Of a stretch of DNA of 37,954 nucleotides, positions 3,823-21,589 are shown in pieces. The notes beneath the pieces are model-generated. The model was given only the letters and a program-made list of their open reading frames with translations, was not told where the DNA came from and did not search any database. Made by a program: the position numbers and the translations under genes. The stretch comes from a virus (taxonomy: Duplodnaviria > Caudoviricetes). The stretch spans positions 1-37,954 of IMG/VR virus record IMGVR_UViG_3300027798_002114; one strand, 5' to 3'. Each line of letters begins with the position of its first letter. Positions within the stretch are counted from its first letter, which is position 1.

Positions 3823-4722
3823 TTATCCAACTACTGGAGTATACTCAATACCAGTTGTTGCTAAACCAACCAACCCAATAGTAGTTTCAAACGCAGCCAA
3901 CTCACTGGCAGCAACTAAAACATCAGCTTGGCTTAGGTTGCTGTTGGTCATCCATGATGTGTAGTCTGTGACCTGTGTCAATGTAGCATCAGTGCCAAAT
4001 ACGTTTTTGTAAACGTGTTTGATGAATGTTTCATTGCTAACACCACCTGCATCTGTTTTGTAAACATCTGTAGATAACAGGGCTTCTGCCAACTGCTTGT
4101 TTGTCCAACCTTTGTCAGCAAGATCAATACCAATACCTGTGTAGGCTTTAGTAACGTCTGTGGTACCAAGTGCGGCTGCTAACAATGCATATACATCGCC
4201 TGCACGGCCTGCGGCATCATAGGCAACGGCTTTGTCTGTGAATACAACACGTTCGTGATTAGCAAGATTGAATTCCATGTTGCTGACCAATGTGCTGGCT
4301 AACTTTACATTGTCAGCAGTTTTAGTAACTGTGAACTCTGTGCTTTTACCACCCATTGCATAAGTGTCAACACCTGTGGTGCCAGTAACGTCAACGGTAA
4401 TGTCAACAGTGCCATCTCCTGCACGACCTGTACCCACTACACCAAAGGTAGCAATCTTACCAGCAGTACCAACTGTGGCTACAGTAACGATTAGATTGTT
4501 GGCTACAGTACCGCCTAGTGCAGTACCAGCAAGAGTGATTGTGTCACCTGCTACATAACCTGTACCTGCACTGGCTGCTAGACTGTCAAGAACAACTGAA
4601 TATGTTCCGTCAGTTTTTGTAACATCAAATGTAGCACCATCTCCGCTGCCGCCTGTTAAGCCTGTAACATTTTGGTAAGTTGTGTTTACTGATTTGTCTT
4701 TGATTGTAATTGTAGTTGTCAT
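3823..4722 (-). CDS. Thr/Gly-rich surface/S-layer-like protein with a C-terminal DUF4214-like domain
   Basis: TGVDT...ERVVFTDKAVAYD and SNETFIKHVYKNVFG...SQADVLVAASE resemble proteobacterial RTX/S-layer DUF4214 proteins; no Sec signal peptide. Confidence 0.65.
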   Translation of the reverse strand: MTTTITIKDKSVNTTYQNVTGLTGGSGDGATFDVTKTDGTYSVVLDSLAASAGTGYVAGDTITLAGTALGGTVANNLIVTVATVGTAGKIATFGVVGTGRAGDGTVDITVDVTGTTGVDTYAMGGKSTEFTVTKTADNVKLASTLVSNMEFNLANHERVVFTDKAVAYDAAGRAGDVYALLAAALGTTDVTKAYTGIGIDLADKGWTNKQLAEALLSTDVYKTDAGGVSNETFIKHVYKNVFGTDATLTQVTDYTSWMTNSNLSQADVLVAASELAAFETTIGLVGLATTGIEYTPVVG

Positions 4723-4847
4723 AATTTTCCTTTAATAATATGAGTCATAAACTTAATTAGTGGTTTATACTAATATTATACACAGTTCTGACGGCAAAAC
4801 ATGTGCGTGTGCGCACAACTTCGATAAGAAAGATAGGAAATGTAGCC

Positions 4848-4873
4848 AAAAAGATAGGCTCCGAAGAGCCTAT
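4848..4873 (-). terminator. Terminator downstream of the tmRNA coding piece
   Basis: ATAGGCTC-TTCG-GAGCCTAT (UUCG loop on minus) followed by a U run. Confidence 0.75.
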
Positions 4874-4874
4874 G

Positions 4875-5262
4875 GTTGTTTATTTTACAAGGTAAGTCCT
4901 ACCCCGGAGTTGCAGTTTCTTAGGCTGCCATTTCAAATTGCTCGTCATTCATTGCTGAAATGTTGAAGTCAACTGTGAAATACTCGAATGTATCTGCGTT
5001 TGCATTTACGTTTTTTGCTTGATTTACGGTCATCGCCTACCGTGTTGCCGTCTCTAACTATTTGCCCAATCGATTACCGGAGCAGGCCCAACTAAGTATT
5101 TTCTCACCAAATGGTGGAAATAATGAGAATCAAACTCATATCTATAGATTCGGAGTCAGTATGTTCTGTCATTGAACTATATTCCCGAAAATACTTAGGT
5201 GGACCTGGCGAGATTCGAACTCGCGTCTTGAACACATCCTCTTTGAAGGGATTACAACAATA
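4875..5262 (-). ncRNA. ssrA: Circularly permuted (two-piece) tmRNA
   Basis: Acceptor piece first (GACGCGAGTTCGAATCTCGCCAGGTCCACC, ending 5198), then an intervening segment, then the 5' piece GGGCCTG (from 5089). The stem GGGCCUG/CAGGUCC has a G3:U70 pair. Tag ORF 5003-4920 reads ANADTFEYFTVDFNISAMNDEQFEMAA*. Outer ends approximate. Confidence 0.9.
5112..5186 (-). tRNA. Degenerate tRNA-like element (anticodon CCG, Arg) inside the tmRNA intervening segment
   Basis: GGGAATA/TATTTCC-A-CCA acceptor, GTTC/GAAC D arm, CTCCGAA loop, ATGAG-TTTGATT-CTCAT T arm. The anticodon stem is mismatched and the T loop has TTT instead of TTC. Confidence 0.65.
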
Positions 5263-5268
5263 ACTGTT

Positions 5269-5297
5269 ATTATAACAGTCCTTGTATTTATACGCAA
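5269..5297 (-). promoter_or_regulatory. Sigma70-type promoter (TTGCGT-N17-TATAAT) overlapping a T4-type late promoter TATAAATA (5292-5285), driving the tmRNA
   Basis: Exact 17-nt spacing; exact T4 late consensus. Confidence 0.7.
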
Positions 5298-12527: not shown

Positions 12528-13062
12528 TATACAGATCTCTCATCATAGCAATAGCAAATTCAAACGCTATTTTAGCTTCATCACCAAGATCATCAGTAAG
12601 TGTTGCACGAATAGCCCCTTTCATTGCATCGGCATTTTCAAAATCATAAAACTTGCCACTGCTAATGTGTGCTACTTGTTTCTTAATAATCTGTCCACCA
12701 AATAAATCACCCATATGGCGGCAGTATAAATGAGCTTTAATTAAATGTTTGTTTTCTGCATCATTGCCTAATGCATGTAGGTATGCTTGGTATTCTAACG
12801 TTGCAGGAGTTAGGTAACAATATGTCCCATCATCTAGTTCTAGAAAATCTGCATATATACTCTTCAGACGGGGAAGGTCTGGCATTGTATCAAGAAATCC
12901 TTGACGCTTGCAATACCATTCAATAGGATCATAAATTGCTAACAAGTTATACAGGTAATTTTTGTAATCTTGTTTTTCAATTTTGCCACCAAGTAACATT
13001 TTAGCAAATTTGGTTGTTTCTGCCTCATGATGAAGGTCTTTGGTAATTTCTCTTAAGCTCAT
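12517..13062 (-). CDS. Heme oxygenase
   Basis: LREITKDLHHEAE (proximal His); AHLYCRHMGDLFGGQII. Confidence 0.9.
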   Translation of the reverse strand: MSLREITKDLHHEAETTKFAKMLLGGKIEKQDYKNYLYNLLAIYDPIEWYCKRQGFLDTMPDLPRLKSIYADFLELDDGTYCYLTPATLEYQAYLHALGNDAENKHLIKAHLYCRHMGDLFGGQIIKKQVAHISSGKFYDFENADAMKGAIRATLTDDLGDEAKIAFEFAIAMMRDLYNGE

Positions 13063-13361
13063 TCTTCTTCCATTTTAATTTGGAGTGGGAATCCATTTCC
13101 TCGAGCTAGGTTAGTTGCTTCAACTGCTTTGACTTCTGCAATTTCAAAACTATACACGCCGGCAATTCCACTGCCCTCAGTATGTATCTGAATTGTAATT
13201 GCCTTGGCAGTTTCTTGGCTATGCTTAAAGATTTCTGTTAAAATACCAATAACAAAATCCATTGGAGTATGATCATCATTTAATAAGATAACCTTCCAGC
13301 GATGTGGCTCTTCGACTTTTAATTTAATTTTTTCGTCAAGTTTTACGTCTGTTGCGCTCAT
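13059..13361 (-). CDS. clpS: Clp protease adaptor ClpS
   Basis: KVILLNDDHTPMDFV...IHTEG...EIAE.K...FPL. Confidence 0.93.
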   Translation of the reverse strand: MSATDVKLDEKIKLKVEEPHRWKVILLNDDHTPMDFVIGILTEIFKHSQETAKAITIQIHTEGSGIAGVYSFEIAEVKAVEATNLARGNGFPLQIKMEEE

Positions 13362-13384
13362 GTCATTCTCCATATAATTACATG

Positions 13385-13408
13385 TAAGGGGAAGTTTCCT
13401 TCCCCTTA
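13385..13408 (-). terminator. Hairpin after hsp20 (terminator or processing site)
   Basis: TAAGGGGAAG/CTTCCCCTTA perfect stem with a GAAA loop on minus; weak U tract. Confidence 0.5.
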
Positions 13409-13413
13409 TTATA

Positions 13414-13866
13414 TTACTTAACCTCTACAATGTCAATAACCCTGGCTTTCTTTTCTTCAGGGATAATGTATTCTAGAGTAATGCTAAGTACACCGTCTTT
13501 TATCTCAGCATTCTTAACAACCATGTGTTCGGCAAGTTGCCATGACCTTTCAAAATCACGACTGCTTAGACCTCTGTGTAAATATTGACGAGTAGTTGAC
13601 TCGTTTGGAGTTTCGCATGCTCCACGAACTGTTAGAATCTCCTGTTCAACTTCCACTGCAATCTCTGATTTTTTAAATCCAGCTACTGCGATTTCAATTG
13701 AGTAGGTGTTCTCTCCAGTCTTTACAATGTTGTGTGGAGGGTAGTTAGTTGATAACTGATTTGCAAAACGAGTTTCAAACCCATCGAACATTCGGTCAAA
13801 ACCAACAAGGGCTCTATTAAGTTGAGCTAGACTATTCGTATCAAAACGTGTTACTGTGCTATTCAT
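13414..13866 (-). CDS. Small heat-shock protein (Hsp20/IbpA family)
   Basis: NYPPHNI, IEIAVAGF, YLHRGLSSRDFERS, DGVLSI. Confidence 0.95.
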   Translation of the reverse strand: MNSTVTRFDTNSLAQLNRALVGFDRMFDGFETRFANQLSTNYPPHNIVKTGENTYSIEIAVAGFKKSEIAVEVEQEILTVRGACETPNESTTRQYLHRGLSSRDFERSWQLAEHMVVKNAEIKDGVLSITLEYIIPEEKKARVIDIVEVK

Positions 13867-13922
13867 AAAATTTCTCCTTTATTAAGCAAGAATCAAGTAG
13901 GGCCTCACCCGAGCACCCTACA
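13867..13922 (-). promoter_or_regulatory. ROSE-like RNA thermometer in the hsp20 5' UTR
   Basis: UUCUUGCUU-AAUA-AAGGAGAA hairpin with a bulged G opposite the SD, preceded by a UAGGG...CCCUA hairpin. Confidence 0.7.
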
Positions 13923-13945
13923 ATTATTTATAACCTGTGTCTGTG

Positions 13946-15817
13946 TTAATTAACTTCTGTAAACTCTGCGTCTACAGGAGTTTCATTTTTCTTAGTTTCT
14001 TCACGTTTGCTCTTAGCTTCCATTACTGGTTGAGCGGCTGCAATCAAATCGCTAAGTTTTTGTGTAATAGCATCTTTGTCTTCAGTTAGGACTGTAGTGT
14101 TAACAGCATCAATTGCCTCATTAACTTTGTCTTTCACTTCTTGTGACAAGTCTGCTTCTACTTCTTCCATATCCTTACGGATACTGTGTACTTGTGCTTC
14201 AACAGTGTTACGAGTTTCAATAACTTCACGTTGCTTTTTGTCGCTTTCAGCATTTACTTCAGCGTCTTGCACCATACGTTCAATTTCTTCTTTGCTTAGA
14301 CCACTATCTGATTTAATAGTGATCTTGTTTTCTTTACCTGTGTTCTTGTCCTTGGCACTGACATGCATGATACCGTTAGCATCAATGTCAAACGTAATTT
14401 CAATTTGAGGCTGACCGCGTCGTGCTGGAGGAATACCTTCAAGATTAAATTCACCTAGTAATTTATTATGTTGTACAAGCTCACGCTCACCCTGGAACGC
14501 CTTAATAGTTACCGCAGGTTGATTGTCATCTGCTGTTGAAAACACTTGACTGGCTTTGGTTGGAATAGTTGTATTCTTTTGAATTAACTTAGCCATAATG
14601 CCGCCCATTGTTTCAATACCTAGGCTCAATGGTGTAACGTCAAGCAATAGCACGTCATTACGATCGCCTGCTAGAACAGCACCTTGTACTGCGGCTCCGG
14701 CAGCAACTGCTTCATCTGGATTAACATCTTTACGTGGGGCTTTGCCAAACAGTTTCTCAACTGCTTCCTGTACCTTAGGCATACGTGTCATACCGCCAAC
14801 AAGAATAACTTCATCAATTTCACTAACATCTATGCCTGCATCTTTAATAGCAATTTTGCAAGGAGCAATTGAACGCTCAATTAGTTCATCAACTAGTTGT
14901 TCTAACTTAGCACGGCTAATAGTCACGTTCATGTGTTTAGGACCGCTTGCATCTGCTGTGATGTATGGCAAGTTAACACTTGTGCTAGCCGAACTGGACA
15001 ATTCGATCTTGGCTTTTTCAGCGGCTTCTTTAAGGCGCTGTAATGCCAACATGTCTTGCTTCAGGTCTACTGCATTGTCTTTCTTAAACTCGTCAACTAA
15101 GTAGTCCATGATACGTTGGTCAAAGTCTTCACCACCTAGGAATGTATCGCCATTTGTTGACAACACTTCGATTTGTTTGTCTCCGTCTACATTCGCGATT
15201 TCGATGATCGAAACATCGAACGTACCGCCACCAAGATCGTAAACAGCAATTTTGCGATCACGCTTATCAGTTTTATCAACGCCATAAGCAAGAGCTGCCG
15301 CAGTAGGCTCGTTAATAATACGGAGTACCTCCAAGCCGGCAATTTTACCAGCGTCTTTTGTAGCCTGTCTTTGGCTGTCGTTAAAATATGCAGGAACTGT
15401 GATAACTGCCTGCGTAACTGTTGTACCAAGATAATCCTCCGCTGTCTTTTTCATCTTACGCAGAACTTCTGCTGAGATCTGTGGAGGAGCCAACTTCTCT
15501 CCATTTGCTTCTACCCAAGCATCACCATTGTCTGCTTTAACAATCTTGTAAGGCATTAGGTCAATGTCTTTCTGTACAGCCTGCTCATCGAACTTACGTC
15601 CAATTAATCGCTTACTAGCATAGATTGTGTTTTTGGGGTTTGTTACTGCTTGACGCTTTGCGCTTGCGCCTACTAGAATTTCATCATTAGCGTATGCAAC
15701 AATACTAGGTGTAGTACGTGCGCCTTCTGAATTCTCAATTACTTTTGCGACTCCATTTTCAATAATCGCTACGCATGAATTTGTTGTACCTAAATCGATA
15801 CCGATGACTTTGCTCAT
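13946..15817 (-). CDS. dnaK: Chaperone DnaK (Hsp70)
   Basis: [27 protein letters not shown]-terminal DAEFTEV. Confidence 0.98.
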
Positions 15818-20286: not shown

Positions 20287-20616
20287 CTAAAATGAGCCCG
20301 CTACCATTTCTAGTAGTTCTTCATGTTCATACGATTCATATTCCTCGTTGAACTCATATATGGCATCATCGATACCTTCCCAACCTTTTACACCCAGCAT
20401 TTCAAATAATTCTTTTTTGGTTATAGGTTCGTTACGCATATGGCTAACCCAAACTGATGTCATAATGATACAGGCAAATACAGTTCTGTCACTATACACT
20501 TCGTTGGCTTCACACCATTGAATAGTACGTTCCATGTAGTATCGAATATCTTCAATTCTATGCTCTAATTGAGCAATCCAATCTCGAGTTGCTTTTCTAT
20601 CCCACACTTTTTTCAT
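20287..20616 (-). CDS. Hypothetical protein
   Basis: ATGA overlap with iscA. Confidence 0.7.
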   Translation of the reverse strand: MKKVWDRKATRDWIAQLEHRIEDIRYYMERTIQWCEANEVYSDRTVFACIIMTSVWVSHMRNEPITKKELFEMLGVKGWEGIDDAIYEFNEEYESYEHEELLEMVAGSF

Positions 20617-20939
20617 ACCCTAAAACTTTCACCACATCCGCATTTATCTCGTTCATTAGGATTGCGGAATTCAAATCCTTCATTGAGGCCGTTACGGATC
20701 CAATCAACTGTTAGGCCTTTTAAATAGACTTCTGATTTAGCATCAACTAATAAGGCAAAATCTGGATGAGCGTAGTTGGTTACACCTACTTCAGCTTCGT
20801 AGCTATCCACAAATTCTAACACATAGGCTAACCCACTGCATCCTGTAGTTTTTACACCTAGCCTGATACCTATACCGCGGCCTCGTTTGGTTAACTGTTG
20901 TTTGATCTTTTTAGCCGCTGTGTCTGTTACGGTAATCAT
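20613..20939 (-). CDS. iscA: Fe-S assembly A-type carrier IscA
   Basis: TGCSGLAY, CGCGESF. Confidence 0.93.
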   Translation of the reverse strand: MITVTDTAAKKIKQQLTKRGRGIGIRLGVKTTGCSGLAYVLEFVDSYEAEVGVTNYAHPDFALLVDAKSEVYLKGLTVDWIRNGLNEGFEFRNPNERDKCGCGESFRV

Positions 20940-21297
20940 TTACGGCTGCTTTGATGGCATCTTCAGCCAATATTGAACAATGTATTTTAACTGGCGGTAA
21001 GGCTAGTTCTTCGGCGATTTCGGAGTTTTTAATTTCTCCGGCTTTGTCGATGTGCATTCCTTTGACCCACTCCGTAATGAGGCTCGAGCTCGCGATAGCC
21101 GATCCGCAGCCATACGTTTTAAATTTTGCATCTGTAATAATACCTGTATCATGATCAACCTTTATCTGTAATTTCATCACATCGCCGCAAGCAGGTGCGC
21201 CAACCATACCAGTACCAATATCAGGATCACTCTTATCAAAAGATCCGACATTCCTGGGATTTTCATAGTGGTCAACTACCTTATCACTGTAAGCCAT
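20911..21297 (-). CDS. iscU: Fe-S scaffold IscU
   Basis: MAYSDKVVDHYENPRNVG, GAPACGD, GCGSAIASSS, LPPVKIHCS. Confidence 0.95.
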   Translation of the reverse strand: MAYSDKVVDHYENPRNVGSFDKSDPDIGTGMVGAPACGDVMKLQIKVDHDTGIITDAKFKTYGCGSAIASSSLITEWVKGMHIDKAGEIKNSEIAEELALPPVKIHCSILAEDAIKAAVNDYRNRHSG

Positions 21298-21589
21298 AAC
21301 AAGTTCTCTCTCTGTAAGTATTGCCTTCTGAGGTGTGTACTTCTTTCCATGCTGTACAATTCTGTTGTAATGGTTGTACAACAATAGGCTGTTGTTCTAT
21401 GACAACAGTTTCACGACGATTATTATTAGCAATGGCCGCGCCAACTACTCCGCCAATAACTACAGGCGCTAGCCAATAGCCGAAGCTAGGACCATGCGGA
21501 CGATGACCATGATGTCTCCAACCATGATTATGTTGAGCAAATGCTGTAGCACTGACAGTTAGTAAAAGAACAGTTAAAAGTTTTTTCAT
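21284..21589 (-). CDS. Small secreted His/Gly-rich protein
   Basis: Signal peptide MKKLLTVLLLTVSATAFA; glycine-zipper-like GGVVGAAI. Confidence 0.7.
   Translation of the reverse strand: MKKLLTVLLLTVSATAFAQHNHGWRHHGHRPHGPSFGYWLAPVVIGGVVGAAIANNNRRETVVIEQQPIVVQPLQQNCTAWKEVHTSEGNTYRERTCYGLQ

Follow-up and report, generated by a model that had tools for sequence, protein, structure and literature searches.

The window (the whole stretch of 37,954 nt of viral DNA that was analysed) carries a tmRNA gene in two pieces on its minus strand. ARAGORN reported a permuted tmRNA with a 27-residue tag at 4829-5289, and in Rfam the gene scored 111 bits with RF04321 (tmRNA_permuted, cut-off 47) and 107 bits with RF01850 (beta_tmRNA, cut-off 84). 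The gene is confirmed as a beta-type two-piece tmRNA, in which the acceptor piece precedes the coding piece. The original prediction had read the order promoter, acceptor piece, spacer, 5' piece, tag and terminator from the minus strand; this layout is present in the sequence and both programs agree with it. The coordinates of all features are given in Table 1. The acceptor piece ends with TCCACC at 5198 and the terminal A is not encoded. The inverted repeat which closes the spacer, also noticed before, forms a stem of 12 bp with no mismatch (5198-5187/5103-5092), and the region 5045-5262 folds with a z-score of -2.84, whereby none of 200 shuffled sequences folded as well. The promoter was absent from the list of a simple consensus promoter scan, because its -35 hexamer matches the consensus at 3 of 6 positions only. 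The tag frame has a resume motif and a hydrophobic end with two alanines (ANAD...EMAA*). Its 27 residues make up a long, acidic and aromatic tag; the tags of relatives have 10 to 28 residues. Directly downstream of the tmRNA, a second terminator-like hairpin (4802-4817) and a promoter-like TATAAT (4770-4790) were observed, the latter preceding an ORF of 299 aa (3823-4722) with a weak DUF4214 match. SmpB was searched in five related contigs (two of them complete) and found in none, hence, SmpB of the host is assumed.

Table 1. Features of the two-piece tmRNA gene and of the tRNA nested in its spacer (positions in the window).
Feature	Position	Strand	Basis
Predicted σ70 promoter (TTGCGT 5297-5292, 17 nt, TG-extended TATAAT 5274-5269)	5269-5297	-	Read from sequence; aligned to RF01850 promoter columns
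tmRNA acceptor piece	5198-5262	-	Sequence, ARAGORN, Rfam
Parts of the acceptor piece	T arm 5224-5208; acceptor strand CAGGTCC 5207-5201; A73 5200; CC 5199-5198	-	
Intervening sequence (spacer), 108 nt, exchangeable cargo slot	5090-5197	-	Rfam and spacer comparisons
5' arm of the 12-bp spacer-closing stem, takes in tmRNA C75	5187-5198	-	Sequence, fold, covariation
Nested tRNA	5112-5186	-	ARAGORN, RF00005, family alignment, tRNA base-rate comparison
Alanine acceptor set of the nested tRNA (G1-C72, G2-C71, G3·U70, A73)	G3 5184; U70 5118; A73 5115	-	
Further parts of the nested tRNA (CCG anticodon, encoded CCA, D loop lacking GG, U56 in the T loop)	Anticodon 5153-5151	-	
Predicted trailer hairpin CACC/GGTG	5105-5116	-	Fold prediction
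3' arm of the spacer-closing stem	5092-5103	-	Sequence, fold, covariation
tmRNA coding piece, begins GGGCCTG at 5089; its G3 forms a pair with U70 in the acceptor piece	4850-5089	-	ARAGORN, Rfam
Tag reading frame ANADTFEYFTVDFNISAMNDEQFEMAA*	4920-5003	-	ARAGORN
Intrinsic-terminator-like hairpin with T tail	4854-4873	-	Terminator scan

Other genes of the window, itself a fragment from a phage record, encode a ribonucleotide reductase, an endolysin, Hsp20, a NifU-like protein, a PAAR protein and DnaK. Host-type chaperone and Fe-S genes lie at 13059-15817 and 20613-21384 (Hsp20, DnaK, NifU/IscU and a gene with the PHROG label ‘ATP-dependent protease’, which we take to be ClpS-like). The DnaK is 72% identical to that of Ralstonia in a plasmid collection of biased composition, which fits a betaproteobacterial host only loosely. 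Complete records with a related tmRNA have lengths of 364 and 383 kb. The upstream flank of the tmRNA varies among close relatives (e.g., L260 and L264), and in some relatives a cspA-like region is found near the tmRNA, with weak RF01766 matches in L264 and L177. The best RNA run holding the window stretch is labelled freshwater. In one run (X1), a single exact contig of 206 nt spans the spacer (5027-5232, depth 3.9); it is an assembled contig giving no RNA ends and could stem from DNA carry-over. The contigs of three further runs (X2-X4) cover the tmRNA coding piece and not the spacer, and speak neither for nor against spacer expression.

Inside the spacer, ARAGORN called a tRNA-Arg(ccg) of 75 nt, which scored 48.7 bits with RF00005 (E-value 6e-10, cut-off 29). 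The cloverleaf seen in the original prediction is therefore recognized by tRNA models, and its details (encoded CCA, CCG anticodon, G3·U70, a TTT T loop and a broken anticodon stem) are all in the sequence; the T loop is TTTGATT and the anticodon stem has two mismatches. The cloverleaf of the window allele has a calculated energy of -7.4 kcal/mol and is not its minimum-energy fold, compared to -19.7 kcal/mol for L270/L273, for which the minimum-energy fold is the cloverleaf plus extra pairs within the anticodon and T loops. Concerning overall similarity, tRNA-Gly(TCC) from T4-like and Lactobacillus phages comes nearest to the window allele (74-76%) and tRNA-Ala(CGC) comes nearest to L301, while the D arms of the family resemble those of phage tRNA-Arg.

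Related nested tRNAs were collected with two kinds of searches. Searches anchored on the tmRNA gave L244, L263/L270 and L273. A second search was anchored on the T arm and the 3' strand of the acceptor stem, in which C71, C72 and A73 were fixed, whereas the anticodon, the context and U70/C70 were free. It resulted in eight matches, namely seven family members (adding L295/L296, L299 and L300) and one unrelated tmRNA-like end. All seven family matches have CCG and U70 and are nested in a tmRNA spacer; no free-standing copy was among the eight matches, nor was one found in 1.4 Mb of related contigs, in which the family scored 84-102 bits and the next score was 51. The seven variants belong to two tmRNA lineages, since L299 and L300 deviate from the others in the acceptor stem and the tag of their tmRNAs. 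They differ at up to 23 of 76 columns. G1-C72, G2-C71, G3·U70, A73, CCA, U33, CCG and A37 are invariant in 7/7, of which C71, C72 and A73 were preset by the pattern that found three of the seven.

In the cloverleaf alignment 97.4% of the cells are paired (slid controls, 33-50%), the paired cells coming from two or three branches and not from seven independent events. Both-sided changes occur in 7 of 22 pairs, distributed over the acceptor stem (1), D stem (1), anticodon stem (2), T stem (2) and the tertiary pair 19:56 (1). Five of these separate the window type from the rest, i.e., pair 4 of the acceptor stem, pair 12 of the D stem, two pairs of the T stem and 19:56, the last being A-U in the window type and G-C elsewhere, depending on gap placement. 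In L299/L300 compared to the rest, the anticodon stem is rebuilt while CCG stays the same, with two changes on both sides and two on one side only. The spacer-closing stem covaries as well. Compensatory changes are thus found in all four stems, and they support a tRNA-shaped RNA under structural selection. A single precursor giving rise to both a tmRNA and a tRNA-like RNA, as proposed before, is accordingly plausible. The conservation of the anticodon is backed by two or three independent branches only. After the CCA, the GGTG partner of the trailer hairpin is present in 6/7 variants, and the hairpin is predicted to mask the ACCA end of the nested tRNA in the precursor. The two anticodon-stem mismatches occur in the window and L244 only; the stem is fully paired in the five other variants. 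Therefore, the earlier view that loss of this stem fits a non-decoding role fails for the family, and the broken stem is a peculiarity of the window/L244 allele.

For an unbiased view of tmRNA spacers, loci were sampled with a pattern that matches nothing but the acceptor end of the tmRNA and is blind to spacer content (120 loci, L001-L120, of about 410 estimated). A full spacer was obtained from 93 loci, 87 of these being unique. Using a strict rule, 36 of the 87 unique spacers are filled by an ORF, four of which look incidental (L049, L084, L088 and L101); for spacers of at least 80 nt, 35 of 54 are ORF-filled compared to a mean of 3.3 after shuffling. In five of the 87, a T arm adjoins the 3' stem (two classed as such plus L049, L084 and L088), another five are shorter than 40 nt and the remainder contains other hairpins. 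The nested element of the window was found in 0 of the 120 loci. It recurs with the window's spacer on the contigs L133, L209 and L232, and the same spacer lies behind a different promoter region in L244. L220 was left out of this support, as it equals the window in length and probably represents the identical record. Outside the spacer, 12 of 534 positions distinguish L265 from the window (98% identity); the L265 spacer of 71 nt is unrelated to that of the window and has no tRNA. The spacers of L260 and L264, whose tmRNAs are closely related to that of the window, are also without tRNA. Judged from these comparisons, the spacer is an exchangeable cargo slot and the nested tRNA is optional, because a locus as similar as L265 does without it; it is therefore not required for processing. 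The role as RNase P processing signal, which had been suggested, does not hold as far as a required signal is meant.

Several further cargoes were observed. Small-ORF spacers (about one third of phage tmRNA spacers; e.g., L078, L011, L002 and L105) often have the ribosome binding site in the 5' arm of the closing stem, the stop codon being placed in the 3' arm. The spacer ORF of L078 was named a WCGPC thioredoxin-like protein from its motif; others encode single-helix membrane peptides or belong to a CxxC peptide family running into the tmRNA 5' end. The spacers of L160 (1514-1593) and L208 (979-1058) contain a D arm, a GNRA hairpin at the place of the anticodon arm and a T arm showing compensatory changes, the acceptor stem being fused into the closing stem. 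More unrelated tRNA-like cargoes with a T arm and without CCA are present in L165/L187/L248, L157/L240, the L162 family, L140, L177, L181, L202, L216 and L242. An intact tRNA-Asn(GTT) with encoded CCA lies in the spacer of a divergent permuted tmRNA (L246, 986-1060) and has G3·U70 with G73. These data indicate that the tmRNA spacer, regarded as ‘discarded’, is used by these phages as a cassette from which small proteins and RNAs are expressed.

G3·U70 is the major determinant for AlaRS, while A20 is the main determinant for E. coli ArgRS, together with C35, G/U36 and A/G73 (PMC9976931). Base rates for these positions were taken from 445 unique phage and metagenome tRNAs, 351 of which have CCA and a clean acceptor stem (tRNA-His excluded). 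The full alanine set (G1-C72, G2-C71, G3·U70 and A73) is found in 18 of 18 tRNA-Ala and in 0 of 326 other tRNAs outside the family. G3·U70 occurs in 9 of 333 non-alanine tRNAs, i.e., six family members, one mis-called tmRNA end and two ordinary tRNAs without the rest of the set; for the non-family tRNAs alone, this is 2 of 326. All seven variants combine the alanine acceptor set with the anticodon CCG instead of the NGC of tRNA-Ala. C35, G36 and A/G73, as expected for a tRNA-Arg(CCG), are also present in 7/7, whereas A20 following G18G19 is not, since the D loops lack GG in 7/7. The non-family tRNA-Arg listed have GGA in the respective D-arm interval in 30 of 30 cases, one of them atypical. 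Five variants have the D loop AAGUA, which offers no candidate for A20. The D loop of the other two (window and L244) is AAUGAYA, whose adenosine could be A19 or, if one G was lost, A20; in this alternative reading the window D loop AATGAYA corresponds to the Arg-type AATGGATA minus one G, with A20 kept. The elbow is non-canonical in 7/7 (no G18G19; G54 in 5/7; U56 in 2/7). Thus, the standard elbow of a canonical tRNA-Arg is absent and its paired anticodon stem is broken in 2/7, whereas the conserved mismatch between acceptor and anticodon expected for a dual identity is present throughout the family.

CGG is the rarest codon of this phage family and of the window, the latter with 3 of 10,965 codons in 44 chosen ORFs and 5 of 10,387 when ORFs were called automatically. 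Stronger avoidance in carriers was not found, the fraction of CGG among arginine codons being 0-0.024 in six carriers and 0-0.031 in six non-carriers. For 25 CGG sites of carriers with homologs, the aligned weight was 14.5 for arginine and 0.5 for alanine. Recoding of CGG to alanine in the phage was therefore rejected, and the phage would miscode a few of its own proteins. A CCG tRNA is missing from two complete relatives, which encode 44 and 48 tRNAs, Arg(TCG) being among them. Among further tRNAs of related phages, a long-arm tRNA with a TAT anticodon (L279, 2425-2516; L283, 8217-8308) was called Ile by ARAGORN, and tRNAs with a CTA anticodon are found in G007, G011, L158 and L252. The translation of the phage itself has little use for a CCG tRNA, and any action directed at CGG would hit mostly host mRNA, if the host uses CGG. 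Genes for ArgRS and AlaRS were each found in 0 of 5 contigs, two of the five being complete genomes and neither of these a carrier; the carrier contigs are fragments (8-35% complete).

As the explanation we tentatively prefer, at somewhat less than an even chance, the nested RNA might be an alanine-charged missense tRNA reading CGG. A single transcript from the promoter at 5297-5269 would carry the acceptor piece, the nested tRNA and the coding piece. Host RNase P would, following its known biochemistry, cut at 5089 (G1 of the tmRNA) and 5186 (G1 of the tRNA), trimming of the 3' sides would expose both CCA ends and CCA addition would complete the tmRNA. Host AlaRS would then charge both the tmRNA and the nested tRNA via G3·U70. 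The cleavage, trimming and charging steps are those generally known from tRNA and tmRNA processing. EF-Tu and the ribosome would have to accept the nested tRNA despite its degenerate elbow, and alanine would be put at CGG arginine codons. As a speculative purpose, miscoding would fall mainly on host mRNAs using CGG and nearly spare the phage, such that newly made host proteins might be spoiled or ribosomes stalled at CGG might be cleared. The window allele, with two anticodon-stem mismatches and a weak fold, may be an attenuated version. The degenerate elbow could bar the use by EF-Tu or the ribosome and counts against the missense reading, as do the weak fold in the window, the lack of additional CGG avoidance in carriers and the alignment of phage CGG with arginine. 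Going further, it is doubtful that large freshwater phages co-produce a codon-targeted mistranslator (Ala-tRNA at CGG) which corrupts host proteins, including those for defence, from which the phage itself escapes by its near-zero use of CGG. If true, this would be a weapon for host takeover consisting of one tRNA. According to the usual explanations, phage tRNAs supplement codons or take the place of host tRNAs that were cleaved, and a mismatched CCG tRNA fits neither. The mismatch of acceptor and anticodon at the rarest codon of the phage rather points to deliberate mistranslation or to a specific decoy role.

Such a decoy is a possibility, on the unlikely side: the RNA would be a non-decoding tRNA mimic, charged with alanine for stability or for avoiding actions of uncharged tRNA, and the Arg-CCG arm would serve as a decoy or sink for an anticodon nuclease or another enzyme binding tRNA-Arg. 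Degenerate D and T loops in 7/7 next to a preserved anticodon loop and acceptor would suit this role, and phage tRNAs have been proposed to counter host tRNases (PMC10264068). Other cargo families (e.g., L160/L208), which keep the D and T arms and replace the anticodon arm, also lend it some weight. However, for a decoy there is no obvious need for an invariant alanine set that occurs in 0 of 326 other tRNAs. Moreover, the same source argues that phage tRNAs evade cleavage and not that they act as decoys, and contains nothing on CCG.

It is unlikely that host ArgRS charges the element as a genuine or dual-identity tRNA-Arg(CCG), which would complete the arginine set of the phage or replace a depleted host tRNA. 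C35, G36 and A73 are arginine determinants (PMC9976931), the D arms look like those of Arg(CCT) and Arg(TCT) encoded by the phages themselves, with D-loop deletions, the window may have kept A20, and G001 and G002 have no other CCG tRNA. On the other hand, A20 is missing in 5/7 variants, G3·U70 is invariant although the adjacent pair covaries, and the best overall similarity is to tRNA-Gly and tRNA-Ala instead of tRNA-Arg. In addition, the complete relatives manage with Arg(TCG) and lack a CCG tRNA, and CGG is hardly used by the phage.

Quite improbable is a decaying pseudo-tRNA in the window, hitch-hiking in a neutral slot. The anticodon-stem mismatches arose from one-sided changes, the allele folds weakly, and the element is absent from the near-identical L265 and from 120/120 content-blind loci, all of which speak for decay. 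In contrast, the window type has its five both-sided changes (acceptor, D, twice T and 19:56), all cells of its acceptor, D and T stems are paired, and its spacer recurs on L133, L209 and L232 and behind another promoter region (L244). Finally, a nested cloverleaf acting as required punctuation, in which the RNase P cut at its 5' end starts the 3' maturation of the tmRNA acceptor piece, is very improbable, as closely related tmRNAs (L265, L260 and L264) have spacers without tRNA, a T arm next to the 3' stem occurs in no more than 5 of the 87 unique spacers sampled without bias and the invariant anticodon would be left unexplained, even though a cut at 5186 leaves a trailer of 11 nt on the acceptor piece, which the geometry permits, and several unrelated cargo families bear a T arm.

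Compared to the betaproteobacterial two-piece tmRNAs of Rfam (RF01850/RF04321), the window gene has the same gene order, a tRNA-like domain with G3·U70, a tag ending in AA and a terminator. It differs in being phage-borne and in its 27-residue tag, the cargo-holding spacer of 108 nt and the 12-bp closing stem. The mitochondrial LSU rRNA of Tetrahymena reportedly consists of rearranged segments with a tRNA gene between them. Like the window gene, it would be a permuted two-piece RNA gene with a tRNA gene between the parts, for a mitochondrial rRNA instead of a phage tmRNA.

The nesting of a tRNA in a tmRNA spacer as such, for which the original prediction knew of no description, has a published precedent. 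Nawrocki, Petrov and Williams (2025) described one permuted tmRNA (GCA-2688965__sp002688965.2) whose intervening sequence contains an intact tRNA-Ala, and called it unique (PMC11915505). In this tmRNA, the tRNA gene is nested in the spacer as in the window, and the same place is taken by intact tRNA-Ala(TGC) genes in the spacers of L207/L245. However, the published tRNA is a tRNA-Ala that is intact and scores highly, whereas that of the window has an alanine acceptor and an arginine anticodon and belongs to a family of seven variants. New would therefore be the cargo, a family of covarying and always nested tRNAs in which the acceptor has alanine identity and the CCG anticodon is invariant, for which we did not find a description. 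The literature searched for a phage CCG tRNA with alanine identity largely excluded subscription papers, among them earlier work on tmRNA variation. In a review of mistranslating tRNAs, the word ‘phage’ is absent from the main text (PMC11415595). A strict pattern for tRNAs nested in permuted tmRNAs gave three matches in bacterial genomes, none of which was real (two standard tmRNAs and one without a coding piece), and absence from bacteria is not implied by this.

A conserved mismatch between acceptor identity and anticodon is shared with tRNA-ProX of Streptomyces and Kitasatospora (PMC10404621). tRNA-ProX has proline identity, adjoins a dedicated ProRS isoform and was shown to cause mistranslation, whereas the window family is known from its sequences; membership was rejected, as no dedicated synthetase was found in the five contigs searched. 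An alanine determinant combined with a non-alanine anticodon is also known from allo-tRNAs with G3·U70 (native anticodons GCG and UUA), which were proposed as missense suppressors; amber-anticodon variants inserted mainly alanine and serine in E. coli, and growth was arrested by a missense allo-tRNA (PMC5389517). Allo-tRNAs have an acceptor branch of 8/4 or 9/3. The nested tRNA of the window has a 7/5 branch, hence, it was rejected as an allo-tRNA, and it differs further in its short variable loop and in being phage-encoded and nested in a tmRNA.
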